Part shown: positions 17,839 through 60,122 of the stretch, piece by piece
How the letters are laid out: each line of letters starts with the position of its first letter
Numbering within the stretch: the first letter of the stretch is position 1
Origin: Marsupella aquatica
Taxonomy: Eukaryota; Plantae; Marchantiophyta
Direction of reading: 5' to 3'
NCBI GenBank assembly: GCA_973895155.1
Contig: OZ316899.1
Coordinates: 15,527,974 to 15,591,973 of the forward strand
Length of the DNA stretch: 64,000 bases
Notes under the pieces: generated by a model
What the model was told of the DNA's origin: nothing
What the model saw: the letters and a program-made list of their open reading frames with translations, nothing else
Database searches by the model: none
Program-made: the position numbers and the translations under genes

Positions 17839-17851
17839 AAGTGGGGAGCTA
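17839..17851 (+). promoter_or_regulatory. Polypurine tract of family-1 gypsy
   Basis: AAGTGGGGAGCTA lies at the end of integrase, directly before the LTR start TGTGATGC. Confidence 0.8.
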
Positions 17852-24080: not shown

Positions 24081-24869
24081 CTACGGTATTGTACCCATCA
24101 AGCAGTAACACTTCGTACCTGAATTTTTTTATTGTCTTGAACGTTTGTTTTGTTGTCCCCATGTTTTGGCCGGCTAGGTTTTCCACATTCCACAAATTGT
24201 CGCCTAGCATGAACGACTGTATCTTTGAAGCATGACTGAAACACCATCGTGCTATTGATCGCATTAGATCGCATTGAATGCTCAACTAATATTGACGATG
24301 GTGTTCAATGAGATAATATTCTTGACTTTCGAAATTCCAGCTTTTTCGCCAATGCTGTCAGCTTGGCATCCTTGTTTGCCCATTCTCGAATCCATCTGGC
24401 TGCTCTAGCCGAATGTTGACCGCTAATGGCAAGGAATTGAACCTCGCCCTTTTTCATGGCTGCTACAAAGTCCCTCCTATCTGATTCTGTGTTGTCATAC
24501 TGCATTAGGTTTCTATGTTTTGTAGTGTAAGGAATCAAGTCTGCTATGTGTGGTTCATGCCCCGGATTTCTTATCAGGGAATTGGCCACCTCCTTTACAT
24601 GTTCTGCATTCAACATTCTGTAACAGAGTCTTGCCGACGCGGGGAAAATACTGTCTACAGGAATAGAAAATATCAAATTGATCCCAAACGTATAATATTG
24701 CTCCATTTGTTGCAATACCTCATTACCTTCTAAGACCTTCTTCTCCTCAGGAGCGTCCAACTGCTCGTCCACATCTTGTGAATGCACTGTCAGGTTTTCT
24801 GTAGTGTCATCCATGATGGCACTGTCAATTTTCTGTTTCTTCTTCTGTCTTGGTCTCTTTTCACTTGCA

Positions 24870-25065
24870 CTCGGCTTCTCAACCGGACGTTTCTTCTCAA
24901 CTGGCTTCTCAACTTGGCTTCTCGTACTCGGCTTCTCGTACTCGACTTCTCGTACTCGGCTTCTCAACTGGCTTCTCAACTGGCTTCTCAATTGGCTTCT
25001 CAATTGGCTTCTCAACTCGGCTTCTCGTACTCGGCTTCTCAATCGGAAGTTTCTTCTCAACCGGA
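24870..25065 (-). repeat. Coding 12-bp-based repeats (EKPV/EKPS units) containing a frameshift
   Basis: Iterated GGCTTCTCAACT / GGCTTCTCGTACTC. Confidence 0.85.
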
Positions 25066-25924
25066 GGTTTCCTTTGGCTTTGTTTTCGTTTTCCCACTGC
25101 TCTTTGAGAGGTCGCTACTGTAGTTCCCGCGGTCTCTGTTGTAGGTTCTGAAGCTTTCTCTGGCGCTTTCTCGGGCACAGGGTTTGTATTCACCGCTGGA
25201 AGCTTTCTCGTCTTGGACAAAGATTCTATCCATTGCTTTGCTTTGACTAAATCAAACTTGGGAGCAAATGCAACATCCTTATCAATTAAAACACCAGGCT
25301 CCTCCGATTCCAACGATAATAATCCAGCTTTCTCAAGTAAATTGCTTAACGTCCAGGTAGTTGCAAAAGAAAAATTGCCTTGGTGCTTCATCATGTTGAG
25401 TTTCAAATATTGAAACCCATACATAATGTCGACTGGAAGCATACCAGTTACCCCGGCGACCAACTTCTTTGTGTCATAGGTCTTTGGAAAAAATCCCATT
25501 GACAAAACGCTCAATTCCCCACTTGCGTGCCATTCGACATTGAATTCAGAGGAGTATGCCTTTGACAGAAGGTTAACTTTAACCCAATAGGACTTATCGT
25601 GCATCTCGAGAATGACCGTATTCATCCCTCTCCCTCCAATGCCAACAGAGACCACAGGTCCGCAAACAAAAGTCAGGCTATCATTTCCTCTGCACTTTAA
25701 GGTCAAAATAGGTTCAATCGTGGTTGATGGCACTTCATTATTAAGCGGGGTTCTTGAGAACTCAAGCCCCCATCGAAAGTGTGGGGATCTCTCATCTAGT
25801 AAGAATCCGTCCAGGCAGTGGGTCGGTGCAATCGCGGGTTTGAAAACAACAAGATCGCTCCCTGCATCATAAACGTCATCCATGTTAGACTTGAAACCTT
25901 TAAAACATTCGAATAACTCTTGTT

Positions 25925-26127
25925 GGATTAGGATGGTCCTAGTCCAACTTGAGATGGTTTTAGACTTGCTCCTACAATTGGGATTCAATCTCCTAGATGG
26001 ATTAGGATCATCCGAGTCCAAGTTTGGATTGGGATGGTCCGAGTCCAAGTTTGGATTGGGATGGTCTGAGTCCAAGTTTGGATTGGGATGGTCCGAGTCC
26101 AACTTTGGACTCGGATGGTCCCAGTCC
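25925..26127 (+). repeat. 27-bp quasi-palindromic tandem repeat (TTTGGATTGGGATGGTCCGAGTCCAAG), about 6-7 copies
   Basis: Directly visible. Confidence 0.9.
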
Positions 26128-27374
26128 TCTAAGACTTAGGGAGGATAGGTGATGGATACTTACTAGGGATTCGTGATTGAAATTGTCTAGAGTCTTCGAG
26201 TGCCAGTTCCACACTGTCGCTCATAGAGGAGAGGTCAAACTCCTCCGTTTCTTCCACGTAGGACATCACAAGGACGCGATTCGCTTCCATCTTTCTAACA
26301 TGTGGCAGCGTGACATGTGGCATCTTAGCAGGCATCCAATCTAGGGCAATAAAAAGAATGGAGATGGAAGGTGGAAGGCGGAGGCAGGCGGAGGCGGGGA
26401 GGCAGAGAGAGAACGGAGAGCGGAGAGAGAGCGGAGAGCAGAGAGCAAGGAGAGCGAGAGGAGAGCAAGAGAGTGAGGAGGAGAGCGAGAGGAGAGCGAG
26501 AGAGCGAGAGAGCAAGGAGTGAGAGAATGAGAATGAGGTCCTGGCTGGACCTCTCCGTCCCTTTACCCCCTCCTGCCTCACCTCGGCCTGTGTACGGCCG
26601 GTTGCCTCCTTCTACTGCGTACGGCCTGCTCTGGCGTACGGCCTGCTCCTGCATACGGCCCGTTGCCCTCACCTTGAATACGGCCTCCTTCCTTGATGTC
26701 CTGCCTACCTAACAGCCTTCCATGGTAGTCCCCGTGCAATTAGGCTCGTGAAGATAAGGTGTGTCCCCAAGCTAAGGTGAACGCGTACTCAACCCTTATC
26801 TTCACGCGATTTCCGGTTGAGCCGACTCGAGCAAAGGGTATAATTTGGGAGACGCCCACTTCGGAGCTCATTCTTGTTCTAGTTTCCCAAATCTAAGCTC
26901 CATGTAATCCGGAGTGGAGTTTCTCTTAAAGTGTTATGTATTGAGCCACTTACCTTCATTGGGTCAGCTTAGCCAGCTTCTTGACATTTGGAGTCCTCTC
27001 AGTTTATCTTTTACAGACATGTGTGGTGTAGGGTTCAGTTTGTTTTTTACTCCCAAAATTTAGTGGCATATAGCTTGTATTTCAAGGTTTTGGGAAGTTT
27101 TTACCATTATTCAAACAACAATGTATACCCCTTGGATGTGATATTAATCTTCTACCAGATCTTAATACTAAGGTGAGTATAAGGTTAATGCATTCAAATA
27201 TAAGGTTCCATTATTTCATGAAACTGTATGTAGACATTAGGGTCTGCCTTAAGACCACGCAAACTTTAGGCTACACCATATCTAGGGAGATCCGTAAAAT
27301 ACGGGGTCTTCCTAAATTTGGATTTTTCTTAGCTTAAGATGTTTGAAGTCTATCTCCCATTACATCATGGGTTG

Positions 27375-28200
27375 GTCTAGGATGGTCCTAGTCCAAGTTT
27401 GGATTCGGATGGTCCTAGTCCAAGTTTGGATTAGGATCATCCGAGTCCAACTTTGCATTGGGATCATCTGAGTCCAACTTTGGATTGGGATCATACGAGT
27501 CCAAGTTTGAACTTGGATGGTCCAAGTCCTAGTTTGGATTGGGATGGTCCGAGTCCAACTTTGGATTGGGATCATCCGAGTCCAAGTTTGAACTTGGATG
27601 GTCCGAGTCCAAGTTTGGATTAGGATGGTCCGAGTCCAAGTTTGGATTGGGATGGTCCGAGTCCTAGTTTGGACTTGGATGGTCTAAGTCCTAGTTTGGA
27701 TTGGGATGGTCCAAGTCCAAGTTTGGATTGGGATGGTCCGAGTCCAAGTTTGGATTGGGATGGTCCGAGTCCAGGTTTGGACTTGGATGGTCCCAGTCCT
27801 AGTTTGGATTGGGATGGTCCAAGTCCTAGTTTGGATTGGGATGGTCCTAGTCCAACCTTGGACTGGGATGGTCCCAGTCCAAATCTTGAATCGGAGGATC
27901 GTAGTCCAAATCCAGACTTGAAGGATTGCAGTCTAAAGCCGGACTTGGATGGTCCCGGTCCAAATCCGGACTCGGATGGTCCCAGTCCAAATCCAGAATC
28001 GGAGGATTGTAGTCCAAATCCAGACTCGGAGGATTGCAGTCCAAATCCGAACTTGGATGGTCCCGGTCCAAATCCGGACTCGAATGGTCCCAGGCCAAAT
28101 CCAGACTCGGAGGATTGCAGTCCTAATCCAGACTTGGATGGTCCCGGTCCAAATCCGGACTCGGATGGTCCTAGTCCAAATCCAAATTGGAGGATAGTAG
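27375..28200 (+). repeat. 27-bp quasi-palindromic tandem array, about 30 copies, with a higher-order variant block after ~27880
   Basis: Directly visible; lies between candidate donor AG|GTGAGT (~27173) and acceptor TGCAG (~28254). Confidence 0.92.
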
Positions 28201-28254
28201 TCTGAATCAAAATTTGCATGAGTTTGGTTTTAATCCATTTTTTTCAGTGTGCAG

Positions 28255-31200
28255 GAAAATAGGAAAAGGATGTCTCAAAGGTTTTCTAGGGGCGATGATG
28301 TTACCTTGACAATCGATGGTTACGACGTTGGAAATGAGACAGTTCAAAAGACAAATCCGCGAGAGAGTGTTCAAAATATTGTGCTGGGAGAGAATCGAAT
28401 TGGGGTTCTCATTGAGAAGGCCTTTGGTGAGACTAGGAAGCTCCCTTTTCCAATGCCTAGGGCAGAAAATCTTCATGATGACATTGACTCATGTGTCATT
28501 TGGGATATGTCATGTGCATATCAATCTGCGGATAAGATTACTCAAAAACGCATCAGTATTGGTAGTTGTTCGACTCGAAAAGATAACAACATCCATAATT
28601 TTGCAAATGTAGAGGAGGATGCTTCGACCACCCTAAGGCCAGGCGATGAGGTTGAAATGTTTATCTCTGGCCATTGTGTGGCCTTTGGAGTTGTTTTCAA
28701 GACCGATCCAATGGAGAGATGTCATAACATATTACTCGGTGAGTCTCGGGTTAGTGTAAAAGTCACAGATGTGATTCATGGTAGTAAGACTTTACCTTAC
28801 GCACATGGTGGAGCTGCAACAATTGAAGAGCAAAGGGCTCCTGGGTTCTATGGGATGTGGTTGACGTCCACAATAAAGTGGAATGTTGATATTGATGGGA
28901 GCAACAAATCTTCCTCTAAGAAGCAGAAGGACAAGGCAAATTTTGTTTCATAGTCTTGTTCGGCGAACACCACGGACACTAAGTGTGACTATTTTCATCG
29001 GGCAAACTGGATGTCAGAGTTGGTTGAATTCTACACTGGTTTGGATCGAACCAAAATGGTTGCCACTGGAATGATCACTGTCCCTCAAGTGACAGCAGCA
29101 GTTGATGATGAAATTCTTGGTGATGACCATGTTGGGATTGCTGTGAAAGATGTCGTGGCAGCACAATACTTTCCCAACATCCACAAGGGAGTAGTGAGTT
29201 TGATTCGATGGCGGATTGATTCAACAAAACTAGTTGCAAATGGAAAATTTTTGTCAGACATTTTGGTGGAAGGTTCTGAGAGGATGGACTCAATGGATAG
29301 GGATGAACTCAATGTGGATGTAAGTGATAGAGGAGTACTGTGTTCAAGGCCGTACAATTTCAACAAGAGGAATCAAGTAGATCCGAATGAAAAGAAGAGG
29401 AGGTTGTTGGAAACCAAGGCAATTTCAAAAACAACAGAGGCGTCAATTGATGACGTGAAAAGAGAAAATTGTTGCAAGCAAAAATGTTGTCTCATTATGC
29501 CAAGGGAAAACATCAAAGATATTAGGATGGAATTTCATGGGATGTCAAGCGAGTCAAAAATGTCACACATTTTCAACCTCTTTCACTATAGAGAGGATGA
29601 TGTTCGTGATAAGGGACACCATGTTCTTAAGGGTATGGTCGTATGCAGACATGCATTTGCAATTATCCACGGTTTTAGCCACACCAAATATTATGATTAC
29701 AAAAGGAGATATGTGGAGGGTTGCAAAATTGGGTTCCATGGCAATACGGGCTTGATGAAAACAAGGGCAAATACCTTGCATGCACGAGCTCTGTTGGAGG
29801 CTTTTTTGACTCGAAATGCAGAGCCCATGCCTCATATGCCTTATGGAGGGGCACATGGGACAGACTCTACTGAGTACCGTCTTCCGGCGTGTTACAAGAA
29901 GCTAGAGATTCTGGAAGATGTGAGAACAAAGATGAAGGAAGAAGGGCTTCCTCCTGTCACAGAGAATACTCTCTACAAGATCTGGAGCAACTCATTTGCA
30001 AACTTCAGTTTTCATAAAGATGGTGCATTTGCCAAGTGTACTCTTTGTTGTGAATACAAAGACAGCTTGATGTGAGAAAGAAGGAAAAAAGAACGTGCTG
30101 AAATTGAAGAAAAGCGAGCGCAACATCTTTGTGAGCAAATGTCACGTAGATATGTTTACTACGCTCATCGAGTGATGGCCAAACAACACCCAGGAGAATA
30201 TCTTTGCATTATTCATGACAAGATGGATCAAGCAAAGACATGGATTCCAAAAATGGTTAGTACTCCTAAATCTCTTTCGGGTCATGGAATGCCGCTACCT
30301 ACTGCTCTCACAGGGATGTTGACCCACGGGAGGGATCCAGGAGTTTATGCACACTTTAGTGTCACTGGCCTTTGGCCAGGAGATGCCGATTTCACAGTGA
30401 CATCCTTGGCTAAGTGTCTTTGAGACCTTGAAGAGTACAATGGAGACAAGACAGGTGACATGTTGGATGGCCTTCATTGGGAACCTCACATACCTTTCTT
30501 TCAAGCCCTACTTGACTTTGAAGCATTTTTTACGGGTTATTTGGAACCAAAGAATATACCGGTGAATAGGTATATTGGTTCTGAAGATGGAGGTGAGAGT
30601 CGGACTGAGACCATCCCAAACCAACAAGATGAGGATGAAGGAGAAGACATGCAAGGAGAGCAAGGCAGTCCATCGTTCAAGCCCTTGCCAAGGCACCAAA
30701 CATTGCAGATGGATAATTCAGCAAAGGACAACAAAAACCAGACTGTCATGGCATTTTGTAGCGAGCTTGTGAGTAGAGGAGTATTTGAAACTGTTCAAAT
30801 GTCTTTTCTAATGGTTGGTCATACGCACAAAGATGTTGATGCACTCTTTTCAAAGGTATCATATCAAGTTCAGCACAAAGAAGTTGCAACCCTCCTTGCT
30901 CTTACGGCAGAGGTATGGGAATGCGAGAGCATTCATCCAGTTCCCAGATTGATAAAAGAATATCTTCAAACTTTCAAGGTGAAAGATATTCAAGGTCACT
31001 CAAAACCTGTATCATTTCTTTTCTCTATGAGAGATAATATACCAATATTTCAGTATAAGTCCCATGTAAAGCAAGCTTGGGCTCCAGTTGGTGGAAGGTG
31101 CATTTGGGCAACAGATCTGACAACAAATTCTCTTCTTTTACCTAGTGGAGAGCCCTTAGCTAAATCCATTGGAGAGATACACAAAAAATCTGAAGAGATT

Positions 31201-32007
31201 ATCCCATTTCTTAACAAGTACCTTGATTTTTTGAGAAGGAGTTGCACTGATGAGACATCTATAGCATATAAGGAAAGATTTCCTCTTGTGAAATATTGGG
31301 AGAGAATTGTGGAGTTGTTGACAAATGGGCTCGCACTAGAAGGAGAGGGAAGTACTCAATTTCCCTTGAAAAACAGATTTTGGCCTAAGACTAACCACGG
31401 CACTGGTTACAAGGTCAACCAACCGGAACAAAGTGGTCCTCCAAGTGAAGATGAGGAGAATGCAGAGATAACGTCTCTTCAAAATGAGGTCTTGGAAGAG
31501 ATGGAAGATCAAGCAACACCATTTGTTGGATCTCGAGCTGAGAGAGAACAAGGACGATGGATTCCTTTACAGGATATTTGTGAAGGAAACTTTGTATTTC
31601 TTCGACCCGAGGATGATTGGGAGAATAAAAATGGTGGAGGTCATTTCTGGTTGGTGAGAGCTTTGGGTTTGGTGGACCCAAAGCATGAAGTCCCAACTAC
31701 ATCTTCAACAAACCCTTCTCTGCCTCGACAGTACGCTCCAATGTTCCCAGTTGAATGGTGGAGGCCTAAACACTCTAAACTTGATGTGACTGAGAGTGCG
31801 CGGTATCTAAATTGTTTTGTGTCCACTAAGACATGGGAACGAGATCCAGGGTTTGGTGAGAATACTCAACATTGGCAGTATGCAAATTCTGCAATGTATG
31901 GTTTTAAATCTGGAATGAAAGAAGAAAACATGGCGGGCAGAGGTTTGAAGATCCCTCGAAATGTTCTACAAACTGTCCAAAATTATCTTCAAAGGATGGA
32001 CAAGTAG
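28255..32007 (+). pseudogene. Sola-like (GHTHxDxD-type) transposase with three N-terminal En/Spm-Tnp1-like repeats; one frameshift and two TGA stops
   Basis: CCKQKC...CRHAF...HGNTG, FAKCTLC, IIHDKMDQAKT, LQMDNSAKDNKN, FLMVGHTHKDVDALFS. ORFs 29011, 30139 and 30460 are in frame across TGA at 30073 and 30421. Confidence 0.8.
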
Positions 32008-32257
32008 ACTTAGTTGTTAGAAGCTATAATAATTAAATAGATAGTTACTAGTTTTTATGTAACTAAGATAGTCACTCATTCAAACATAGTAATTTACGTA
32101 CTAGTTATTTACTATTCTAATAGTTTTAATTTGATACTATCTCCTCATTTTCTAAACTTTTGATCATTATGAATATGAATGTTTGCTTTTTCTACATAAT
32201 TAAAAATATTTTTCTATTCATTCCTTTCTTTTAAATGATTATAAGAAGAGTTGGTAG

Positions 32258-32585
32258 GCAAATGTACACTTTTTAGGCCAAATGTACACTTTGTTGCACT
32301 AAAAGTTACACTTTCTAGACCAAATGCACTTAAATGTACACTTTTTAAGCCAAATGTATGCATTTTTCACTCAAATGTACACTTTTTAGGCCAAATGTAC
32401 TCAAATGTACACTTTTAAAGCCAAATGTACCTATTTTGATGTTCAAATTTACACTTTTCATTGCCCAAATGTACACTCTTTGGGCCAATTGTACACTTTT
32501 CTATCCCCAAATGTACACTTTTCATTGGCCAAATGTACACTTTTCCAAGCCCAAAAGTACACTTTTCATTGCCCAAATGTACATA
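32258..32585 (+). repeat. Right subterminal repeats CCAAATGTACACTTT (more than 10 copies)
   Basis: Directly visible. Confidence 0.9.
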
Positions 32586-35580
32586 AATCAAATAATAATA
32601 CACTTTTAATGAATAGGCTGATAGAAGAGAACGGCACCGGCAACGACAACGGCACCGGCATTGGTACAGGACACTGCCCCAGAGGTCGGCCTAAGCCGAC
32701 TCAGGAGGGAAAACCCCTTTACCGGAGCCAAGGTGAGAAGGAGGCCAGAACACGAGTCGGGAGTTCGAATGTATGTGGGAGCCTCCAGCCCCGAATCAGA
32801 GGCAGAGCAACCTAAGGCTCCTGCCCACGGAAAGCAGAGGGAGAAGACAGCCTGGAACCCAGAGGAGGAACCAGGGCCCGTGATCTATGAGGCCGTTTTT
32901 ACGGCGGGACCAGGAGAACAGAGGGGGAAGCCGGGAGTCCAAGCAGTGGAGGAGGCGATGGAGGACTACAGCAATGATAACTCCGGCTATGGGTCAGATC
33001 ATCATGTACCAGGAGTAAGAACCTATGGCCGCTTTATCCCCACGCTTCCAAGAGTAGTTCGAGGGGATCCCACCCAACAGAGCAGCCCCGAGTCCCCCCC
33101 ACCAGATGTCGCTCCCCCAAGCTTTGACGGCATAAAGCAGATGGCACAAGAGTTTCAGGAGCGACTCAGAGAGGAAGAGAAGGCAGCCCTGGATAGGGAG
33201 AAAGAGGAGGAGATTGGCCGGAGGACATCAGGCGGCTTGCCGAAAAAAGAAGCAACCCTCTTTCCACCATAGAAGAAATCCGCAGGGCGGCTTGGGAACA
33301 GAGGCCGAGGTGGTTGATGCCGATGACTTCTACTTACTCCACCTATGCTAAAGATAGAGCCATGGAGTACGGGGAGATGTATGGGGAACTTGCGCTCAGC
33401 ATCTTTGGGGAGGAGTTGGAGCAGGGACCCTTTTTCCAGAGGGAGATATTGGAGAAGCACCAATTAGAAGAAGCGATGGCTTTGGAGAGAAGCAAGAAGG
33501 ACAAGGTCATAGGGCGGCTTAGGGAGATGGAAGCCGAGGTGGAAGACCTAAAGGCGGCCAAGAAAGCCCAAGATGAGCTACGGATTAAACGGCATGAGCT
33601 AAACATCGTGCAGGGGCAGTTGGATACCGCGTAGTCTAATAATCAGATTATCAAGGATAAACTGACTCAGACCCAAGGAGAGTTGGCCGAGGCGGTCAAA
33701 GAAAGGGAGAAGTGGAAACGAGAGCTGAGAGACGCAGAGGAGGCCCACATAGCAGCAAACAACCGGGCCATGGCGGAGACTCAGAGAAGGGAGAGGGCGT
33801 TGAAGGAGGAACTCGAGGATATCCGCGGAGCCCTAGAGCAGAAGGAGGCCGAGTTAGGGAAATCCTATCAAGGGATTATTATGCTACAACAGGAGCTTGC
33901 TTCCCTGACGGCCAGCTTCAAGGCCGACCTCTGTGAGAAAGACGACCAGCTCAACCAGACTTATGCCAAGATGAATAAAATGGAGTCTGATGTCGTGACA
34001 GAGCTCGACGAGGAGCTAAGAGCAACCCAGGAGGAGAGGGCTACCTTAAAGAAAGAGTTGGAAGAAGCCCAGAAGGAGCTGAAGGAGGCAAGGAAGGACC
34101 TGGACGAAACCCAGGAGGAGTTGGAAGAAACCACAAGGAAGATGGAGAACTTACAGCGGCGGGCCGACAACCAAACAGAGCGGCTGAAGAAACAGACAGC
34201 AGTATTTAAGTGCTTAGCTTCATCTGTTCCAACTCCAATTGTGGGAACCCCGTTACCAGGAGTGGTACTGGCAGAAGGACAAGCCGAGACACACGCCCTG
34301 ATGTCGGAGGTAAGTGGCAAAGGGAAGGGACCAGCTGCCAAAACAGGGAAGAAGAAGAAGCGGAAACCTTCTGGGTCTGGGAGTTATACGGCTCCTCCAG
34401 CCTTTGTCACCAAGGAGGTAAACCCGACACCAACTTCCGGCATGGTCACGACAATGGATCCACCTGTCAAGGAAGGTGGGGATGGCAAGACTGAGGCCGG
34501 GACAACTATTGATGAAGCCGTGGTAGAAAATCCACCACTAGAGCCAGCCGAGGAAACCATAGCCGGGGAGGCCGTGGCCGATACTGATGCCGAAGCCGAG
34601 GGTGGACCCAGTCAGGCCGATGAAGAGTTGACTTGGTCCGGGGCAGGTAATTTGTTAGAGGAAGGACCGACGGCAGTGGCTACGGGGGAAGCGTTGGGGG
34701 CGTCCATTGAGGATCCACCACCGGTGTCGTGACGGTGCAAGGGCGTCGTTCCTTTTAGGAAGGGCGGACGTGGAGGTAGGAGGCGTGAGTGGGTAGGGCG
34801 GGCTCGGATCTCCAAGTTTAGGCTGAGGATCAGGACCAGGAGACGGCCCTGACACTTAGATTAGTGGGATTGCGGATCCACTAGTAGGAGCAACACTTGT
34901 GCTCCTGCCTCACTGTACTTAGGTAGATTACAGTTAGGTAGATTATAGGTAGGATAGATTAAGCTTACGCTGCTAAGAATTGGCGGATCCACTTCCAAGA
35001 TAAGTACCTGGGCAGCGAGGAGTCCAGGGCCTCTTTCTTAGCAAGTTTTTAGTTGCACAGCAGGGCTGGGATCAAGTAGTAAGAGAAGCTCTCGGTTAGT
35101 TATACAGTGACCCTTGTGTATATTCATGTTTCCTCATGCCTAAGAGCTAAATAGAGTTGGCCTCACGGCTTAGTTTGCAGAACTTGTGTATGAGATGTAC
35201 TGTTTGTATGGCAAGTGCATGGTATAACTCAGTCAGAATGAGTCATTTTGCTATTTGTGTGTCGTATTAACTTGTGTGAAGAGTGCCCACATCAACTAAT
35301 AGATGAAGGGAAGTAAGCAAGGGAGTGAGAGTTGGATGTGTCGAGCTGAGAGAGGTCTTAGCGGCTTAACCAAGCCAATTGGGGATCATTCCGGCGGCGG
35401 AATCCAAATATACCTAAAGAAAAGGAGGGGAATACAAGGAAGGCCTAGATTAGGCCGGCTACGTATCTCATGACCCGATGAAGGATCTGTCCAGTATATG
35501 TGTGTAAAATGTTAATAGTAGTAGTAGAAGGAAGTTAGCAGCGTCCCATGCCGCTAAGCCGCGGAAATGGCCTCGCCGAG

Positions 35581-36979
35581 GACAAAACCTGCCTCAAGAA
35601 GAGCATCAAGCGCTGCAACTCAATGATTCCCACATCCTGCTTCGGTAACTGAGACACCCTTCTCTTGAACTCCCTTAGGAGCTCTTGCGGCCCCTTCAGC
35701 TTCTTGTTCTTGTCATTCACCCAATCCAAGAAGGTAGCCTGCGTGACCCGATCAGCATCCTCCGCTTGGAACTCCTCTTTCATCTTCTGGTCGAAGTCAT
35801 CCCAACCCTCAGCTGACTCAACGATGGTCTGCACCATCAAACTCAACTCGTTCTCAACCAGCACCATGAACTCTTTCACGGCTGTCCCTTCGTCCAACTT
35901 GTAGATAGCTGCTTTTGTCAAGTAAGACTTAAGGTAGCTTGTCACATTTCTCCCATCGAACTGCCCATTCTCTTTTAGAACCTCTTGGAGACACCAAGTA
36001 GTTCTATTCGCTTCCCTGTTCGCCCTTTCCGACTCAAGCTCTTCCTTCCTTATGGTTCTCATCATCGACATGACGATGCTCGATATCGAATCGACTTCGT
36101 CATAGTCACCCATCTCATCCAATCGCCCCAAGGAATCCCCAGTACGGTTGCCAATGTCGCGAGGACTTAAAGTTAGGGGCTCCTTGGGCAAACTACACAT
36201 TTCTGGCTGCGATCGGGAAGGTGACAAGCACTTTTTGGAGCGAACTCTCACTCCTTTATATTTTTTACTTTTCTCACAAAGGTTACAATAGGTGCCCTCG
36301 AGTAAGCTTGCCCGCAAGAGTCTGGTAGCTGGCCCTACGGCGGGCCGCTACCTCTAACTTGTCGGGTAGAACTCCTCGAATGACTAACTACTCAAAATCT
36401 GATGGAAAAACTATCCTCCTTAGCTCACAAAAACCAAAAACTCAACTAGCTACTCCACTGGTCTAAAACAGCTCGCATGGAACTCGGGCCTGGACCAACG
36501 ATGCTCCAAACTTGAGAAATCCTCTCCTGGATCGATAAGACTCCAAACTCGAGAAATCCCCGCCTGGATCAACGAGACTCTAGACTCGAGAAATTCCCCG
36601 CCTGGATCGAAAACTCCCCACCTGGATGGAAAACTCACTCGGAACTCCAAAACCGCCACACAATAGTCGAGTTCCGCAGAACAGAGCGAAACTCACAGAA
36701 TGCAACTCAACACATCTCAGTAGACAACCGCCAACCTCAATGAGCCGAGACTCAAGTCTTAAGTAGCATCAGGAACCCAACCATCCAGCCTGAGCCAACT
36801 GCCAGCAGCAAGGCTCATCCAAACTCCAAGCCTGGTGACGATGAGTCACCCAATCACCAAACCTCAATCCATCCAACCAAGCAGCCCCTCCGAGTCAGCA
36901 TGCACGCAATCCAACCTGGAGGCCTTGCCCATCATCCCCTATAAAAGCCATTCCTGAGCCAAAATCTTTTGGCACGACA
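35581..36979 (-). mobile_element. Family-3 gypsy copy A: 5' LTR (36155-36979), PBS and truncated gag
   Basis: LTR TGTCGTGCC...CTCGCGACA. PBS TGGCAACCGTACTGGGGA (36153-36136). gag MGDYDEV...GQFDGRNVTSYLKSY. Confidence 0.88.
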
Positions 36980-38288
36980 CCGGCCTTGGAGAGATGGCCT
37001 CAACCCGAGGCCCAAAGTCTGGCGGCAACGCAAGCCTCACCCATCCAACCTCCACAGGTAGCGGTAGCCATTGTCGCGAGGACTTAAAGTTAGGGGCTCC
37101 TCGGGCAAACTGCGTGTTTCTGGCTGTGATTGGGACAGGCGACAAGCACGTTTTGGAGCGAACTCTCACTCCTTCATATTTTTTACTTTTCTCACAAAGG
37201 TTACAATAGGTGCCCTCGAGTAAGCTTGCCCGCAAGAGTCTACTAGCTGGCCCTACGGCGGGCCGCTACCTCTAACTTGTCGGGTAGAACTCCTCAAGTG
37301 ACTAACTACTCAAAATCTGATGGAAAAACTATCCTCCTTAGCTCACAAAAACCAAAAACTCAACTAGCTACTCCACTAGTCTAAAACAGCTCGCATGGAA
37401 CTCGGGCCTGGACCAACGAGGCTCCAAACTTGAGAAATCCTCTCCTGGATCGACAAGACTCCAAACTCGAGAAATCCCCACCTTGATCAACGAGACTCTA
37501 GACTCGAGAAATTCCCCGCCTGGATCGAAAACTCCCCACCTGGATCGAAAACTCACTCGGAACTCCAAAACCGCCGCACAACAGTCGAGTTCCGCAGAAC
37601 GGAGCGAAACTCACAGAACGCAACTCAACAGATCTCAATAGACAACCGCCAACCTCAATGAGCCGAGGCTCAAGTCTTAAGTAGAACCCAACCATCCAGC
37701 CTGAGCCAGCTGCCAGCAGCAAGGCTCATCCAAACTCCAAGCCTGGTGACTCACCCAAACACCAAATCTGGTGACGACGAGTCACCCAATCACCTTTTCC
37801 CTGCATAAGGTACTTGGTGAACTGTTCCATCCAACTCCCGAATAGTATAGGTCGCATTCGCATGAACAGCAACCACCACATACGGACCTTGCCACCTCCG
37901 AGCAAACTTGTTTCGGCTCAAGTGTTGCTCGTCCAACTTACTTTCGTAAACCAGAACCCAATCCCCTTCCTTAACCAAGACAAGCCTCAACCGATGAGTC
38001 CTGTCAAACCTGCCCTTGTTCCTTAACCTCGCCATCTTCAATTGCTTCCGAGCCACCTCAATCTTTGGGGGTAACAAGTTGAAGTGTTCGATCCTTCGAG
38101 CCAGCAACTCCTCTCTCGAAACTTCATCTTTCCATCCAATCAGTTGCCAGCTGCAAACATCTTCGTCGAGTGGCATCATCGGCAAGTGCCCAGTAAGTAG
38201 CTCAGCCGGAACGTATCCGGTCACTGAGCTACAAGTCATCTGATCCGCTAACAGAGCAAGTGGAAGGAGACTCGACCACCTGCCCAAG

Positions 38289-44700: not shown

Positions 44701-47700
44701 TTCACCATCACATTCGGACATCCACCCCAAAGATAGTCCTTCATTGAACTCACCGAGTTCACACTCCAAAGGAACTCATTATCCACCGGCCAATTCCCCT
44801 TTTGAAACACCTTTGGATCCATCAAGTTGATCTCCGAGCCAGTATCAATGAGCGCCCGCACCTTGCCTTCCATTCCTTCCAACTGGCACTCGCTCTTTGG
44901 ACTTGCTCGAGCCCAGTATCCATCTCGGTAAGCATAACCATTTCCTTTCATTGAGCCCATGACATGAATGGTCCTCAACTGCGCGGTAATGCTTTCTCGT
45001 TCTTCCCCTTTAGTCGGGTCCCTGTTTGCCATAGACTCAGCTTCGCTTCCAGTTCCCATGAGCTCCTCTTCCGCATCGAAGAACTCATCTCATCCAATTG
45101 CCCCAAGGACTCCCCAGTATGGTCGCCAATGTTGCGAGGACTTAAAGTTAGGGGCTCCTCAGGCAAACTGCGCATTTCTGGCTGCGATTGGGACAGGCGA
45201 CAAGCACTTTTCGGAGTGAACTCTCACTCCTTTATATTTTTACTTTTCTCACAAAGGTTACAATAGGTGCCCTCGAGTAAGCTTGCCCGCAAGAGTCTAG
45301 TAGCTGGCCCTACGGTGGGCCGCTACCTCTAACTTGTTGGGTAGAACTCCTCGAGTGACTAACTACTCAAAATCTGATGGAAAAACTATCCTCCTTAGCT
45401 CACAAAAACTCAACTAGCTACTCCACTAGTCTAAACAGCTCGCATGGAACTCGGGCCTGGACCAACAAGGCTCCAAACTCAAGAAATCCTCTCCTGGATC
45501 GACAAGACTCCAAACTCGAGAAATCCCCGCCTGGATCAACGAGACTCTAGACTCAAGAAATTCCCCGCCTGGATCGAAAACTCCCCACCTGGATCAAAAA
45601 CTCACTTGGAACTCCAAAACCGCCACACAATAGTCGAGTTCCACAGAATGGAGCGAAACTCAGAGAACGCAACTCAACAAATCTCAATAGACAACCGCCA
45701 ACCTCAATGAGCCGAGGCTCAAGTCTTAAGTAGCATCGGAAACCCAACCATCCAGCCTGAGCCAGCTACCATCAGCGAGGCTCATCCAAACTCCAAGCCT
45801 GGTGACTCACCCAAACACCAAACCTGGCGACGACGAGTCACCCAATCACCAAACCTCAATCCATCCAACCAAGCAGTCCCTCCGAGTCAGCATGCATGCA
45901 ACCCAACCGGGAGGCCTCGCCCATCATCCCCTATAAAAGCCATTTCTGAGCCAAAATCTTTTGGCACGACACCGTGGCCAAAGAAGTACCGGAAGAGGCA
46001 GTGATCGCAACCTTAGACGCGATCAACCAGGCCGGGCCTGGTACAGAAGTTGGGGTGGTGGAGGCCTTTCCCAAGCCCGAGGGTCCAGAAGACCCACCAG
46101 TGGCTATTCCAGAGGACAATCCGATGGTGGAGGAGGACACTCCAGCCCCTTCCAACACTACATCCCCAGGGCTGGATGTCACTACCCTGGATCCCACGTG
46201 AGTTAATGTCTGACCGTGCCCAACTCTAGACGGGCATAACCTGGACCACCCGGAACTCTTCGTACCGGGTACATTTCTAAATGGGCTTTTGGGAGATTTC
46301 TCCCAACATATAGCCCGGGATATCGGGGAGTTTGTGGCTCGGAAGGTAGCCTACTTCTTCAATCAGGAGTTGGTTACCACAGTAAAGGCAGGTCGGGCTC
46401 AGTTGAAGGCCCTTCAGCGGATAGAGCGGTACCGGGTTGAGTCCGTGTACCTAAAGGATGAAGTTGCGGCTCAAGAGACTGAGCTTCTGCAACTATGACC
46501 CAAGGTTGCAGCCGCCAATGAATTGTTAGCAAATGCGCATGCCCTTATCGCCTTAGCCAAACAGGCCAAAGTCAAGAAGGAGGCCAAGATTGCACGGCTC
46601 CGGACCCAGGTTGACAGTTTGAAGAATCAAACTGTCATCTGGCAGAAAGACCTAGAGGAGGCCAAAGAGCGGGCCTAGCGTGACACTACGGAGATTGCCA
46701 CCCTGCAGGCCGAAGTGGCACGGCTTCAAGCCAAAGCCGAGAAACAGACCCAGGTGGTGGACAAGTTGACGAGCAACGCCCAGCAACTGGAAGAGGCATG
46801 CAAGGAGGCAGTTGAGGAGACAGACGCGGCAAAGCGAGAAAACAAATCTCTGTTGGACCAAGTCCAACTCCTCAAGGCGGACAACGACAGACTCCGTAGG
46901 CAGCGGGATGGCCGCTCCCACTTGGACGGCTCTGGCAAGCGCACCAGACATTAGCGGAGGGTTAGGCTTAGAATAGACTTAGGAGTAGCTAAAACAGGCT
47001 GGTAGGACAAGTGTCGGCCAGAAGATAGCGGCGCTGACACATTAGCCAGCCTGTGTAGAGTAGGTTAGACTAATAGGACAAGCAGGCACCAGCTTAGCAA
47101 GGATATAAGTTAGCATAGATTTGGGCACGAGGCCAGGCCAGTCCTCAGCCCTTAGTATTTAGCGGCCCCCCAGTTGAGGTTAGGGGAGGGGGATTTTAGA
47201 CTCAGAGGTTGGCCATTTGCAGTACGCGCGGGGAGTCCCAAACTCGGTGAAATACCGGAGTGCCAAGGGGAGGGTATACGACTAAGCTCGCTGGGCGAGT
47301 GCGGAGCCGGGCTCTGTTGTAGTGTATACTCCTCGGCCTTGGGCCCGTTCGTTCACGAGGTGTCGGGTCAACCAATCATAAAGTGTATGATCATAAATGA
47401 ATGAAATCCTTTCTCCTTAATTCCTTCGTGTAAATCGAGATTTCTGTTATGTATGAATGCATGTATGAGTCTTATGTGCAAGTATCAACGCCGGGCCAAA
47501 CATGTTGTGCCAACCGTGCACGGGGTGCCGGATACAGGTACGGGGTTGCGAGCCCGGGTTGAGCCCTTGTACTAATGGATCCGGATTGAAGGCGGTAACA
47601 CGAAGGCTTAGAAGTCTGTGAGCCGGGGTCGACCCCGTGTCGACTAAGGTATGTTCCGACGGCGGAACACAAACTATACCTAGGAGGTGTCTGTACATAA

Positions 47701-47840
47701 CAGTAAGCGCACTTAGCGCTACTTTACGTACTAAGTTAGGAGCATTCTGTGCGTCCCTCCCTGCCCAAACCCTCATATTTACGAAGGATGTGCCTGTCTA
47801 AGCCAAAGCCCGGGTTAAGGCCTAGGCTGACGATGTGACA

Positions 47841-54300: not shown

Positions 54301-56136
54301 AGCAGGTTGGCAATGAGTTTGTACATGATGGTTAACATGGTCAACGGCCTCCAATCTCTAAGTCTTCTCTTGTCAGTTTTTTTGGGAATGAATCGAATTA
54401 CCCCATCCTTGATTCCGGAAGCAAGATGACCAGTCCTCCAGAAATCACAGACCATGGCATAGAGGTCCGCTTTCATAAACTCCCAGCAAGAGCGTAGAAC
54501 TTCAACAATCATCCCATCTATACCAGGTGCCTTGTCATAGGGTAGAATCAAAAGGATCTCATGCAGCTCCTTCAATGATGGTAGTGCCTCTAATCTTCTA
54601 TTTTCAGTCGCAAAAGGGGAAAAATGTGTATGCTCTGAAAGTCTACGGCAAGCAGCCCGCATCTCAGTCAACTCTTGAAAGGTCTTCACAGTGAGGGAGT
54701 AAAGTGACTCACAGTACCTTTGAACTTCTCGTATTACCAATTTCTCCTCCCGGATCTCAACTCCATCCTCGGTGATAAGAAACTCCATATTCTCACGAGA
54801 GCGCTTGGTTTTCACCATTGCAAAGTAGAACTTGGATGGTTCATCTCCATGCCCCAGCCAATTGATTCTAGACAGTCTTCGATAGTGGTGAGCATCCTTC
54901 AACTCCACCTCACGAACACAAGCATCAGAAGAGTAAAATTCCAAAAGGGTGTCTGGTGAATAGTCTTCCATAATTGTCACTTTTAGAGTGCGCAACTTAT
55001 TCCTCAATCTTTCCATTTCTGCCTCCCTTGGAATCGGAGTAGATTGTAGGTCCATGTAGCATCTTCTAAATCTCTGATAGGCAGTGGCAAATCTTAGGTG
55101 GGGGTCAAGAGGGGGATCGAAATCCCCCAACCAAGCAGCAGCCAACAAATCCAAATTACCCGTGTCCCTGAGCACCATAGGATTGGCCTTAAAGTAGGTA
55201 GCTCTTTTGCAACCCGATGCAGCTGGGCGGATGGGTGTGAGTCGAAAAGAAATGAGAATAGGATCATGGTCCAAGAGGGCAGATGATCCGTCATGCTTAA
55301 GCTCAAGAATTTCTTCAATCCATAGCCCCTTCTCACTAATGTAGGAGCGGTCAAGTCGGGATTGAAAGAGCCTACCATTGCAAATCCCGCGCCAGGTAAA
55401 AAGAGATCTCGACACCGAACCCAAAATGTCTCTGACATCTAGCAGATCAAAAAGGATTTGTAAGAAGCGCCAGAATTCCAATTCCCAGCCCCGGAGAAGA
55501 AGGGACGGGCCCGTAGAGTCAGAGCGGCTCTCAGTCATGTTGAAATCTCCACCAATGATCCATCAATTGTGGGGCAGCACGTTGAGAAGTCGTTCCATAG
55601 CAAGATCCGATCACTAGTGGAGTTGGGTGCGTACAGGCTGAGAAAGCCAAAATTGCCCTCCGAATGCTCTAGTTGTACCCACACAGCACGACCTCCCCCA
55701 ACAGTGCCATTGGAAGTTACTTTGAAAGCCGGGTTGATCAAAATGGCAGCACCTCCGCGGCCCTCCTCAGGGCCAGAGTGTGACGCCGCCGGTACGGCGG
55801 TTAATGAGTGATTCAGTCTAACTGCGCTCGGCACGAGCGTTAGGTGGGTCTTAGGCCGCTATTATTAGCATAACGACAGTATTTAGGTAATCATTAGGGG
55901 TAGGACATCATTAGGCAATAAGGGGGACTTCAGGTTCGGGCTGGCGGCGGGTCGCTATTCGCACACCCGGGTTACGAGCGTGGAGGGGCCCCTCCCTCGG
56001 GTCCGTATAACGAACTTAAGGAAGCGGCCACTGACGCACGCTGACTCAGACCGGTGGAGTGGCCGGTACACCACAAGCGTGAGCGGTTCAACCTATGGGC
56101 GGCGAGGAGACGTCGGGGATCGACAAGCCCTCAAAG

Positions 56137-56143
56137 TATAAAA
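56137..56143 (+). promoter_or_regulatory. Candidate TATA box of the family-2 LTR
   Basis: GTATAAAAGGGG followed by a pyrimidine-rich leader, ~105 bp upstream of ATG 56245. Confidence 0.55.
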
Positions 56144-56244
56144 GGGGAGCCAACCCTTTGTAGTGCACCAGTCCATCAGTCCGCGCGCCAGCTTCGACCC
56201 CAGCTCTCTCGTTCTCTCTAGGTCGCCACTACTATCTCCTCTGA

Positions 56245-58887
56245 ATGTCGCACACGATCCTCTCCAGCTCGGCCATTCGATTCTGGACGCAGTTCCTATC
56301 TACCGGAAGGCACTTGGCCGATTCATTGAAACACGCCAACCCGCGCCGATACGAGATCGAACGCGAATACGAGAGAGCCATCCGCCTAGCAGGACGACAC
56401 CACTACGTCCTTAACTTTGACTACCCGTCTCAGAGCGAGCTTTACCGACCAGCTGAGGTATCTGGGTACTTCTTCAATGGAGACAAATATATCGGGTTCT
56501 GGGAAGCATTGCTTCGGCTTCCGGACGAGGTCTTCAATATCCCGGGTACAATCGACCTGCAGCGACATCACTTCGACCACATCCCTGCCCAGGTTCGGGC
56601 TGTCATTAACGGCGAGTCCAGCACCAACCGTTCGACAAGGGCGTCCGCACTCGCTTCGGAGAACTTCTACCAGCACCTACAGAGCTTCATGGGAACTCGG
56701 CCATCAACCAACATGACCAACTCAGCCGGACCCGTACCCGTACCCGTACCCGTGCCCATGCAACCTCAGCTTCAGCTTCAGCCTCAGCCGCAGCCTAGCC
56801 AAACCCCACCACCTATCACCCAGCCAGCACAGGTACGCTCCGTCATCAACGCTGTGGATCTTAGCGATGACGACGAGGCTACCCCACCCTTGACCAGGCG
56901 GCCCAGAGGAACAAGCGCTCGGGGGGCCGACACTATATCGTCCCCACCCCCTGCTCTGACCCCAGGAGCGGCCCCAGCAGACAACATGGTGACCGTGGCC
57001 GCCCCGGGCCCGTTACCAACCGCAGTGGCACTCCCCAGGCCCGATCGGGAGGATGGGGAAGTATCACCTTCCCCGAGTCAGTCACGGGGAAAGAAGAGGA
57101 AGGAATCCGCCAGTGCATCCGGGTTACCGTTGGCCACGGTAGCCGTAGCCAAGGTAACGATGCATCGCATGGGGGAAAACGTTCACAGCAACATCCTCCA
57201 TCCCAAGCATGCGGTGTACCTGAAGACTCAGGGATTTGAGCACCTCGCCTCTCTCCCCTGGAACACTTGCAGGTACTACGGGGAGGACATGACAGAATTC
57301 GTCAAGAATTATGACGACGTACGTCAACAGACTCGGCTGCGGGGAAGGAATATGTCCCTCACAGAAGAACGGCTCAAGATGATCTTCGGGTTACCCGAAG
57401 GTGACCATCGAGTCGAATCACGGGCTCCCAGGGGCAAGGGGGCCAAGTACCAATCTTCAAGTTTTCCCTCAGAGGGATCAGTAGACAACGGGTTCGTGAT
57501 GAGGACCTGCCTCATGCCCGAGATAGCTGAGCGGCTGGAGTTCCAGAGGTACGCTCTCCACATGATGGAACCCCGGGGGGAGATCTCCGCCGCCCAGGTC
57601 ATCCAGGTCGAGAACTATCGACCTAGGAAATGGGCGTCGTACTTCGCTAAGAAATTCCATGAAGAGATGGAGCGGCGAAGGAAGATGCTGTACATTGGCG
57701 GGAAGGCGTATTTCGCTAGCCACATCGAAATCATTCTTGAGTGGTACGCCCGGTTTGATCGACGAACCCTTCCCCGCATCAACGTTACAAAGCTGGTCCC
57801 AGCTAGGTGGGTTTTTCCGGCATTGGAGAGACGGCCCCAACCCGAGGCCCGAAGTCCAGTGGACACGCCAGCTTCACCCACCCCACCTCCACAAATAGCT
57901 GTAATCGTAACCGAGGAGGCACCGGAGGGGTCGGTCGTTGCAACCGTTGATGCGACCCAACTAGCCGGGCTAAGTACAGAAGTTGGTACGGCAGAGGTCT
58001 TACCCGAACCCGGGTCTCCCAAGGACCCGCCGGTGGCAATCCCGGAGAACCGGACATCGCTGCAGGAGGATACTCCGGCCCTTTCCAACGTTATGTCCCC
58101 AGGGCTGGACGTCACTGCCCCGGCCCCTGCGCGTGTTGATGTCTGCCCGTGCCCAAATCCGGACAGGCACAACTTGGACCACCCGGAACTCTTCGTACAG
58201 GGTACGTTTCTGAACGGGCTTCTGGGAGATTTCTCTCATCAAATTGCCCGGGATACCGGGGAGTTCATGGCCCGGAAGGTAGCCTGTTTCTTCAATCAGG
58301 AGTTGGTTGCCGCCGTAAAGGCAGGGCGGGCCCAGTCGGAGGCCCTTCAGAGGATAGAGCGGTACCGGGTGGAGTCCGTGTACCTAAAGAACGAAGTGGC
58401 GGCTCAAGAGGCTGAGCTTCTGCAACTACGACCCAAGGTTGCAGCCGCCGATGAGTTGTTAGCAAAGGCGTACGCTCTTACCGCCCTAGCCGAACAGGCC
58501 AAAGCTAGGAACGAGGCCGAGATTACACGACTCCGGAACCAGATTGACAGTTTGAAGAAACAAGCTGTCACCTGGCAGAAAGACCTGGAGGAGGCCGAGG
58601 AGCGAGCCCAGCGGGACGCGACGGAGATAGCCACGCTGCAGGCCGAGATGGCGCGGCTCCAAACCGAGGCCGAGAAGCAGGACCAGCTGGCGAGTAAACT
58701 GACGAGCGACGCCCAGCAGCTGGAGGAGGCATGTCAGGAGGCAGCAGAGGAGACGGACGCGGCGAGGCGAGAGAACGAATCTCTGCTGGACCAGGTCCAG
58801 CTCCTCAAAGCGGACAATGACAGGCTTCGAAGGCAGCGGGATGGCCGTTCCCATTCGGGCGGCTCTGGCAAGCGTGCCAGGCATTAG
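56245..58887 (+). CDS. 880-aa LTR-encoded protein (plant-transposon-protein-like domain, P/Q-rich linkers, C-terminal coiled coil, basic tail)
   Basis: Uninterrupted ORF. GFEHLASLPW...MTEFVKNY...RLRGRNMSLTEERLKMIFGLPEG aligns by eye with family-1 GLEAFVKLPW...LLEFVGSW...RVYGKDFYLTPRVIAEVFGLPMG. Confidence 0.85.
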   Translation: MSHTILSSSAIRFWTQFLSTGRHLADSLKHANPRRYEIEREYERAIRLAGRHHYVLNFDYPSQSELYRPAEVSGYFFNGDKYIGFWEALLRLPDEVFNIPGTIDLQRHHFDHIPAQVRAVINGESSTNRSTRASALASENFYQHLQSFMGTRPSTNMTNSAGPVPVPVPVPMQPQLQLQPQPQPSQTPPPITQPAQVRSVINAVDLSDDDEATPPLTRRPRGTSARGADTISSPPPALTPGAAPADNMVTVAAPGPLPTAVALPRPDREDGEVSPSPSQSRGKKRKESASASGLPLATVAVAKVTMHRMGENVHSNILHPKHAVYLKTQGFEHLASLPWNTCRYYGEDMTEFVKNYDDVRQQTRLRGRNMSLTEERLKMIFGLPEGDHRVESRAPRGKGAKYQSSSFPSEGSVDNGFVMRTCLMPEIAERLEFQRYALHMMEPRGEISAAQVIQVENYRPRKWASYFAKKFHEEMERRRKMLYIGGKAYFASHIEIILEWYARFDRRTLPRINVTKLVPARWVFPALERRPQPEARSPVDTPASPTPPPQIAVIVTEEAPEGSVVATVDATQLAGLSTEVGTAEVLPEPGSPKDPPVAIPENRTSLQEDTPALSNVMSPGLDVTAPAPARVDVCPCPNPDRHNLDHPELFVQGTFLNGLLGDFSHQIARDTGEFMARKVACFFNQELVAAVKAGRAQSEALQRIERYRVESVYLKNEVAAQEAELLQLRPKVAAADELLAKAYALTALAEQAKARNEAEITRLRNQIDSLKKQAVTWQKDLEEAEERAQRDATEIATLQAEMARLQTEAEKQDQLASKLTSDAQQLEEACQEAAEETDAARRENESLLDQVQLLKADNDRLRRQRDGRSHSGGSGKRARH

Positions 58888-60122
58888 CGGCGGAGTAGGA
58901 ATAGATTAGGATTAGGATTGGCTTAGTCAGGCTCTTGGGACAGGCACCTGCCTTAGGTACGGCAGCGCTGCCCTGCTGTCCAGCCTGCGTAGATTAGGAT
59001 CTTCTAATAAGACACAGCCGTTTTCCGGCCTGACTGTCAGCTTAGTTAGGACCTTGGTCAGCGAATCTTCGGCGGGAGGACGCCCCGTTCCTCGGCTCTT
59101 AGTATTTAGTGCACCCCTCGGTAGAGGCAAGGGGGGGGGGTTTTTAGTTTCAGAGTCGGACATCCGCGGGACATGCGGGGAGTCCCGACCTCTGGGAATG
59201 ACAGAGTACCAAGGGGAGGGGGTAGGACTAAGCTCGTCGGGCGAGTGCGGAGCCGGGCTCCGTTGTAGTGTGCACCCTTGGCCTTGAACCTGTGCATTCC
59301 AGGGCTGTCGTGTCAACTAAGTGTACGCATATGTTCCCTTTGTAGTAAAATCCTTTCCCATCATTTTTCCTTCGTGTAAATCGAGATTGTATGCATGTGT
59401 GCGCATATGTGTGTGGGTTTCTCGTATATGGGTGGCAGCGCCGGGCCGAACGCACTACCCGAGACGTGCACAGGGTGCAGCCTGCGGGTAAGTGGTTGCG
59501 AGCACGGGTTGAGGACCTGTATCATCGAATCCGGATCGAAGGCGGACAGCACGAAGGCTTAGAAGCCCTTAAGCCGGGGTCAATCCTGCTATCGACTAAG
59601 GTACGTTCCGGCGGCGGAACACAAACCATACCTAGGAGGTGTCCGTATTTAGCAGTATGCGCACTTAGCGCTAGTTTACGAGAATAAGGTGCATTACGTG
59701 CTTCCCTTCCTGCCCGAACCCTCAGATTTACGAGGGATGTGCCCGTCTAAGCTGAAGTCTGAGTTAAGGCCGAAGCCTACGACGTGACACAGAGTAAAAG
59801 ACATTGTAAGAGGGGAGAATAGTGCAGAGAGCATTATCCAATCTGAAGGAGTCGGCTTTCAATTCTTGCAAGGCAAGAGCGTTCAGGGAAGGGCGAACAA
59901 AAGAAACCCATTTAATGACCACGTTCTTACGAACAGGGTTGCAGAGACCACAAACATTCCATGAGGCAAAATTAAAAAGTCCCATGTCCGTCACAGAAAG
60001 TTCACACCACCTAGCCCAAGAAAATTAATTCAAGGGAGGAGAGGGGGGCCCTCCGAGGCAGCCATGTCAATCGGAGGCAGGCAAATCTCCATTGCAGTTA
60101 AAATTTTCTCAAGGGTGGTGGA

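Follow-up and report, generated by a model that had tools for sequence, protein, structure and literature searches.

Can the long terminal repeat (LTR) of a plant retrotransposon be a gene in its own right? This question is raised by a 4,011-bp unit at positions 55779-59789 of a 64,000-nucleotide stretch of DNA, hereafter the window, from the liverwort Marsupella aquatica (contig OZ316899.1, positions 15,527,974 to 15,591,973, assembly GCA_973895155.1). The unit, whose family we denote family 2, holds an intact open reading frame (ORF) of 880 codons. We found that the unit very likely is a solo LTR left by a liverwort retrotransposon of the non-chromovirus Ty3/gypsy kind and that its ORF evolved under purifying selection. 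With a probability of about 0.5, we read the locus as a solo LTR carrying a selected gene whose product has a core of predicted VANC21 fold and is likely a nuclear DNA-binding anti-silencer of its own family. The coordinates of all features are collected in Table 1.

Borders and copies of the unit

The unit begins with TGTGACGCC and ends with GTGACA (TG..CA). Eight of its ten terminal bases form a short inverted repeat, and CAGAG stands on either side as a 5-bp target duplication. Self-comparison of the unit found no internal direct repeat, no terminal direct repeats and no long terminal inverted repeats (TIRs), and Rfam and tRNA scans returned no Rfam match and no tRNA. Contigs from the sequencing runs X2 and X3 bridge the empty site, skipping 4,016 bases that correspond to the unit plus one target copy, and in the run contigs diverse flanks depart from the unit at 55779 and at 59789. 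Because of the empty-site contigs and the diverse flanks, both borders are independent of the assembly. The insertion interrupts a long interspersed nuclear element (LINE), with a reverse transcriptase (RT) ORF at 53970-55538 and a DUF4283 ORF at 61023-62192. An initial annotation, made from the sequence alone, had described a 4-kb TG..CA unit with a perfect 5-bp duplication and an intact 880-amino-acid ORF behind a TATA box. All of this was confirmed, with TATAAAA starting 108 bp before the ATG.

Across four runs, 8,739, 13,295, 6,305 and 420 contigs lie on the unit, and in three runs the depth on it is hundreds of times that of the flanks. Family 2 is multicopy; these contig and depth figures yield no copy number. 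Contigs of X2 and X3 also join 58794 to 55778, that is, they return to the unit start, which suggests that elsewhere a family-2 copy is nested in the ORF of another copy.

Probable identity of the unit as an LTR

We consider the unit very likely an LTR because a purine tract and integrase end precede other copies of it, and because the LTR of a paralogous family in the window, family 1, lies directly behind RT, RNase H and integrase (RT-RH-INT). In X1, 13 contigs leave the unit at 55779, and the last 16 bases of their consensus equal the family-1 purine tract at 14 of 16 positions. In the frame across this 5' junction, 7 of 8 residues are identical to the end of the family-1 integrase. Two points count against the assignment. 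The junction is one 30-letter consensus of the 13 contigs with an agreement of 0.45, found in one of the four runs and among 24 of 1,683 loose-end rows listed. In addition, neither the window nor the loose ends showed a primer-binding site (PBS), gag or pol belonging to family 2, in line with the initial annotation, which had seen no gag-pol of this family in the window. The 3' loose ends of all four runs were mixed flanks with no PBS after the 3' end (short repeated unitigs are possibly unlisted), and two metagenome scans, one with a motif common to both families and one with the homologue P0076, returned no loci.

The missing PBS and pol would also suit a mobile cassette of another kind, with TG..CA ends and a borrowed integrase, which had earlier been kept as an alternative. 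Such a cassette is highly improbable, as the purine-tract and integrase junction precedes other copies, the paralogous family stands directly behind its integrase, and the unit lacks terminal direct repeats and long TIRs.

In family 1, the integrase frame runs to its end inside the repeat that starts at 17852. The LTR of this family is estimated at 4.75 kb and its ORF at 1,150 codons; this ORF matches residues 321-503 of the family-2 protein at 28%, and the core proteins of the two families are 26-29% alike. Because two families this far apart in the core have the same layout, the gene-in-LTR layout would be old, and the presence of two such deeply diverged families in one window is new here. 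The family-1 pol has RT-RH-INT without archaeal RNase H or a chromodomain. Its identity is 71% with a 1,954-aa gag-pol, 57-58% with proteins of Riccia sorocarpa and ~40-50% with polyproteins of flowering plants, some of which are fused to Transposase_32. We call family 1 Athila-related in the sense of domain order and pol matches, not of a tree. An integrase ending in the LTR was not recognisable in 51 related polyproteins, and no family-1 gag or 5' LTR was recognised upstream in the window. A solo LTR of family 1 (11131-15062, minus strand) sits reversed inside the pol of its own family.

Selection on the ORF

We compared the ORF with a second family-2 copy in the window. This copy had been taken as one decayed piece (36980-47840) with the same terminus. 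It is real and shares the 3' end of the unit, but it is not contiguous, being split by a nested Gypsy element at 37072-45971. Its 5' part is lost and its target duplication is unreadable, and codons 555-880 contain no indel. Over 322 codons of this range, the synonymous rate (dS) was 0.50, the nonsynonymous rate (dN) 0.135 and dN/dS 0.27 (bootstrap 0.19-0.38), with the four stop codons of the second copy left out of the count. The substitutions fell 53/35/89 by codon position, and the coiled-coil region gave a dN/dS of 0.16-0.26. Control frames gave 0.68, 1.59, 0.73 and 1.79, and the antisense frame that shares third positions gave 0.33. Of the indel rows on the unit (12 of 62 listed), eight lie in the tail, one in the leader and three in the ORF, where one is in frame and two compensate each other. 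The 880-codon ORF evolved under purifying selection, which the initial annotation had proposed to check against this very copy.

The family-1 ORF copies gave dN/dS values of 0.29 and 0.35. Selection in this family begins at Met88 (+377 in the LTR), with a dN/dS of 0.93 before and 0.11-0.23 after it. An in-frame start further upstream (+117) was rejected as coding, as the first 87 codons have a dN/dS of 0.93 and contain a stop in one copy. The stretch at Met88 and the beginning of the family-2 ORF can be aligned, though weakly (E = 0.003), and the TATA upstream is kept in both family-1 copies.

Layout of the LTR and placement of the ORF

Families 1 and 2 have one order of TATA, leader, ORF and 900-bp tail. 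The family-2 ORF begins 467 bp inside the repeat. No TATAWA other than the TATAAAA at 56137 occurs on the two strands of the unit. By our estimate about one is expected by chance per 4 kb of this composition; the significance lies in where the box stands and what surrounds it. Downstream comes a CT-rich tract (56204-56219), and such a tract after the TATA box is typical of plant core promoters. A T/GT-rich stretch near 59325-59430, behind the ORF stop, is likely the poly(A) region, in keeping with plant poly(A) patterns. A 29-bp motif at 59606-59634 is common to the tails of both families (26 of 29 columns, E = 1.6e-5), and elsewhere the non-coding DNA of the two LTRs is alike only in the first nine bases, eight of them identical. 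This motif is a candidate packaging or processing signal. It forms a small hairpin amid otherwise unalignable tail DNA, and its local folding is not clearly better than that of shuffles (z -0.55 and -2.10; a third folding window missed the motif).

Plus-strand priming at the integrase end very probably encloses in the repeat an accessory gene of a type that in Athila stands between pol and the 3' LTR. By standard LTR biology, reverse transcription would then copy the gene to both ends, and recombination would leave it in a solo LTR. With the head TATA driving the ORF and the T/GT-rich tail ending the message, every LTR, solo or paired, would be a complete transcription unit.

On the condition that the TATA is the LTR promoter, the ORF had been placed in R/U5 ahead of the PBS, implying a minus strong-stop DNA over 3.5 kb and expression from solo LTRs. 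The TATA does precede the ORF and may be the genomic promoter, but U3 fits equally. We give even odds to a position in U3 with a promoter of its own, ranked ahead of a long R and of U5. A U3 position is at least as likely as R/U5 because the sag gene of mouse mammary tumour virus (MMTV) provides a precedent and because no long minus strong-stop is needed. There would be a second, TATA-less promoter in the tail, gag would come first on the RNA, and the minus strong-stop would stay under 0.9 kb.

It is possible, on the other hand, that the TATA at +359 is the only promoter and that the ORF lies in a 3.2-kb R. RNA ending at the poly(A) site of the 5' LTR would then be the ORF mRNA and read-through RNA the genomic one; gag-pol would need splicing or internal initiation, and an early strand jump would be allowed. 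In both families the LTR has its only TATAWA in the head, ahead of the ORF, with the promoter-like CT-rich tract behind it and the T/GT-rich stretch downstream of the stop, as a long R would have it. However, an 880-codon ORF ahead of gag would block scanning, the gene would be present twice on the genomic RNA, and no conserved splice sites came to light. MMTV sag, the precedent for a gene encoded in an LTR, lies in U3 and has several promoters (PMC4667437; here and below, comparisons rest on parts of the cited papers).

A position in U5 behind a short R, which the TATA before the ORF would also allow, is unlikely. Both families have a single poly(A)-like T/GT-rich stretch, which follows the stop codon, and a poly(A) site before the ORF would leave solo LTRs without a proper end. 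The minus strong-stop over 3.5 kb is obligatory in this U5 case and is not required in U3. A plus strong-stop of 4 kb would occur in the U3, R and U5 cases alike; since LTR lengths of up to about 5 kb are known (REXdb, PMC6317226), this is nothing exceptional.

The encoded protein and its predicted fold

Pfam searches with the protein and its core found no family match, only generic coiled-coil matches, and none to Transposase_32, ATHILA or DUF1985. Word-based homologue searches (whole protein; core alignment, longer lengths) returned nothing. A HMMER search of a library of 1.84 billion proteins with a core profile recovered 67 of them with E values no higher than 0.001. Species were named in four of the ten clusters looked up, all of them liverworts (Calypogeia fissa in three, Riccia sorocarpa in one), and the 906-aa homologue P0069 has the same three-part build as the 880-aa protein. 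Three of the 34 homologues scanned match Transposase_32 (best E 4.6e-7) and one matches DUF1985 (8.1e-5), all below the cut-off, and the Atlas leads for P0011 are Transposase_32 (0.84) and ATHILA (0.83), both under 0.9. Run against 120 proteins from the pol search, the core profile did not detect the Transposase_32 stretch (best E 0.69). In P0052 (Riccia sorocarpa) and P0065 the core domain stands behind a DDE_Tnp_4 fragment, hinting that it may also occur beside Harbinger-type transposases.

The core was modelled from 56 of the 67 matches and the family-1 core, with 11 short, partial or off-domain matches excluded (predicted local distance difference test score 91, predicted template modelling score 0.87). 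Foldseek placed DNA-bound VANC21 first (E 0.023, probability 0.97, TMq 0.46), with the next row at E 2.6. VIA-align gave VANC21 a Z of 8.2 (root-mean-square deviation 4.5, 216 residues aligned, 9% identity) and the next row 2.2, so that VANC21 was the only match above Z 5 among 48,161 chains. Because of the gap to the next row and the full-domain cover, homology is favoured. We consider it very probable that the modelled core has a VANC/PMD-type fold, accompanied by a coiled coil. Comparison of the core with a viral structure library produced no clear match (best E 0.009, TMq 0.22), and the model of the N-terminal domain (local distance score 77) had no clear match in PDB (best Z 5.5). Basic clusters lie at residues 283, 477 and 876 of the protein.

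The sense orientation just behind pol and the faint kinship to Athila 3' ORFs would also be expected of an env-like membrane protein. This is extremely improbable: no membrane helix was found in the 880-aa protein (maximum Kyte-Doolittle mean over 19 residues 1.13), and no hydrophobic segment in the protein, the 906-aa homologue or family 1 (maxima 0.49-1.26).

Possible anti-silencing and its alternatives

The motif that VANC21 binds has nine bases and occurs in tandem arrays, and the protein strips methylation from its own family (PMC5735166). By analogy, the protein may bind non-coding motifs of its own family and counter methylation in trans; judging from the predicted fold, there is an even chance that it acts by such VANC-like anti-silencing. 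The observed/expected ratio of CpG is 0.90 in the unit, 0.72 in family 1 and 0.43-0.51 in the neighbouring pol and LINE, a weak signal confounded by age and GC content.

Several observations weigh against this reading. The LTR of a third, gene-less family also has a raised CpG ratio (0.68). No tandem target-motif array was found in the family-2 LTR, unlike in VANC targets. Words containing TTAG are over-represented, but motif enrichment is marginal family-wise (80-196 of 500 shuffles for all non-coding DNA, 9-11 of 500 for tail 5- and 6-mers). A Z of about 8 can, according to the tool, mean a common arrangement, the Foldseek E exceeds 0.001, 9-10% of residues are identical, and when a sequence profile of the core was run against PDB, no sequence was found, VANC21 included. 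The fold does not fix the direction of the effect, because the host silencing factor MAIN reportedly has the same fold as VANC (PMC13547354). Selection acted on the replicating lineage and not visibly on inserted copies; we read it in this way because the stops by which the second copy decayed are all TGA or TAG, with G-to-A and C-to-T changes dominating, as in post-insertion decay. The intactness of the copy at 55779-59789 may reflect only its youth. The tails of families 1 and 2 also contain no canonical TATA, which placement in U3 would want.

Tentatively, the protein may instead be an accessory factor (in RNA export, in transport of the particle or integration complex, or in target-site tethering) or a MAIN-like self-limiting repressor. 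Such roles have been proposed for extra ORFs whose products are nuclear and have SMC-like coils (PMC7264820), MAIN combines the VANC fold with silencing (PMC5418596, PMC13547354), and the lack of tandem target arrays in the family-2 LTR fits as well. However, the sole structural match is a DNA-bound anti-silencer, anti-silencing was speculated for a PMD borne by a transposable element by Ikeda et al. (PMC5418596), and VANC too has a coiled-coil oligomer domain (PMC13547354).

Other elements in the window

The 13,054-bp unit inside the family-1 LTR (19567-32620) has 20-bp TIRs, ORFs matching NIF-phosphatase, an N6/N4-methyltransferase fragment and DUF7869, and 27-bp and 81-bp tandem arrays. It is likely a large DNA transposon. 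Family-3 Gypsy copies at 36155-36979, 37072-45971 and 48604-50546 lie on the minus strand and have LTRs of ~820-850 bp; their 4-bp sites (CCGG, CCAT/CCGT and ACGG) resemble the NCGN preference of REXdb Phygy (PMC6317226). Three minus-strand ORFs at 885-6710 (748, 694 and 249 aa) possibly belong to a DNA transposon; the 249-aa product has NSD-like PHD fingers and the others have no Pfam match. An AT-rich tandem repeat with a period of ~100 bp occupies 63191-63708.

Table 1 Coordinates of the family-2 unit, its parts and related elements in the window.
Feature	Position	Strand	Remarks
Left target-site duplication CAGAG	55774..55778	.	Sequence and empty-site contigs
TG..CA unit, 4,011 bp	55779..59789	+	Likely solo LTR, non-chromovirus Ty3/gypsy family 2, inside LINE
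Right target-site duplication CAGAG	59790..59794	.	Sequence
TATAAAA box at +359	56137..56143	+	Likely ORF promoter (putative function)
Intact accessory ORF, 880 aa	56245..58887	+	No internal stop
N-terminal helical domain, aa 8-121	56266..56607	+	Conserved, without clear known fold
Core domain, aa 300-505	57142..57759	+	Predicted VANC21-like fold; faint Transposase_32/ATHILA/DUF1985 ties
Predicted coiled coil, aa ~690-865, then basic C-terminus	58312..58839	+	Generic coiled-coil Pfam matches below cut-off
Non-coding tail, 902 bp	58888..59789	+	Putative roles
Second family-2 copy, piece left of nested Gypsy element	36980..37071	+	Codons ~525-555
Second family-2 copy, 3' piece	45972..47840	+	77% identical, 4 stop codons
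Family-1 paralogous unit, solo	11131..15062	-	Target duplication TGTCC; internally deleted
Family-1 pol (RT-RH-INT)	15063..17851	+	Ends in purine tract abutting LTR
Family-1 3' LTR with homologous ORF	17852..35592	+	13-kb TIR element inside (19567-32620); 3' end cut

Relation to known systems and implications

Athila, Ogre and Retand elements frequently have extra ORFs, located in their internal region (PMC7264820, PMC6317226, PMC11963269). In the non-chromovirus Ty3/gypsy Athila/OTA elements they are of the types ATHILA (PF03078), Transposase_32 (PF20167), PMD (PF10536) and Transposase_28 (PF04195) (PMC6317226, PMC7264820). The elements described here resemble Athila/OTA in long LTRs (up to ~5 kb in REXdb), the 5-bp target duplication and a coiled coil (PMC6317226), as well as in the RT-RH-INT of paralogous family 1, the extra sense ORF behind pol and the faint Transposase_32 matches of homologues. 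They differ in that the extra ORFs described for Athila/OTA are internal, before gag or between pol and the 3' LTR, whereas the family-2 ORF lies inside the LTR. In addition, the integrase runs to the purine tract here, and the 880-aa protein has no Pfam match to those families. Narrow phrase searches of the open literature found no report of a whole gene inside a plant retrotransposon LTR.

VANC21 of Arabidopsis VANDAL21 (9LNK/9LNJ; PMC5735166, PMC10398659) has the fold predicted for the core (216 residues, Z 8.2). Like the family-2 protein, it is the accessory product of a transposon and combines low-complexity linkers with a coiled coil. However, VANC resides on a eudicot Mutator DNA transposon and not in an LTR context, identity is 9-10%, the activity is only predicted here, and tandem target-motif arrays were not found in the family-2 LTR. 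Betaretroviruses of the MMTV type also have a gene mostly inside the LTR, sag, with several promoters, and sag is mostly preserved in solo LTRs (490 of 527 contigs; PMC4667437). MMTV is an animal retrovirus with an immune protein encoded in U3, whereas the gene described here belongs to a plant element, is unrelated, encodes 880 aa, lies entirely within the LTR and has a TATA of its own. The rice elements Retrosat2, RIRE3 and RIRE8 share LTRs over 3 kb, many solo LTRs and an extra ORF (PMC3485330). Compared by description only, they differ in that the account given there has ORF0 upstream of gag-pol and does not place it in the LTR (PMC3485330).

An LTR that is itself a gene survives solo-LTR deletion, and its dose is doubled in every intact copy. 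Solo-LTR formation is regarded as the host's means of deleting retrotransposons. If the predicted activity holds, each leftover solo LTR would likely carry its own anti-silencing gene. It is conceivable, though we consider it doubtful, that a liverwort Ty3/gypsy lineage moved a VANC-type gene with promoter and terminator into its LTR, and that solo LTRs keep full-length copies unmethylated in trans. If true, deletion of an element by recombination would leave an expressing anti-silencer behind. Such elements could be a source of the VANC/PMD fold before flowering plants. VANC has been derived from MAIN and called dicot-specific (PMC13547354), and the order of Gypsy-borne and host PMD was left open (PMC5418596). 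It is an open question what extra ORFs of the ATHILA, Transposase_32 and PMD types do in plant retrotransposons (PMC7264820, PMC6317226). Genes of this kind would be overlooked by annotation tools that handle LTRs as non-coding DNA. The predicted VANC-like fold opens anti-silencing to direct tests in a liverwort and bears on the origin of VANC.

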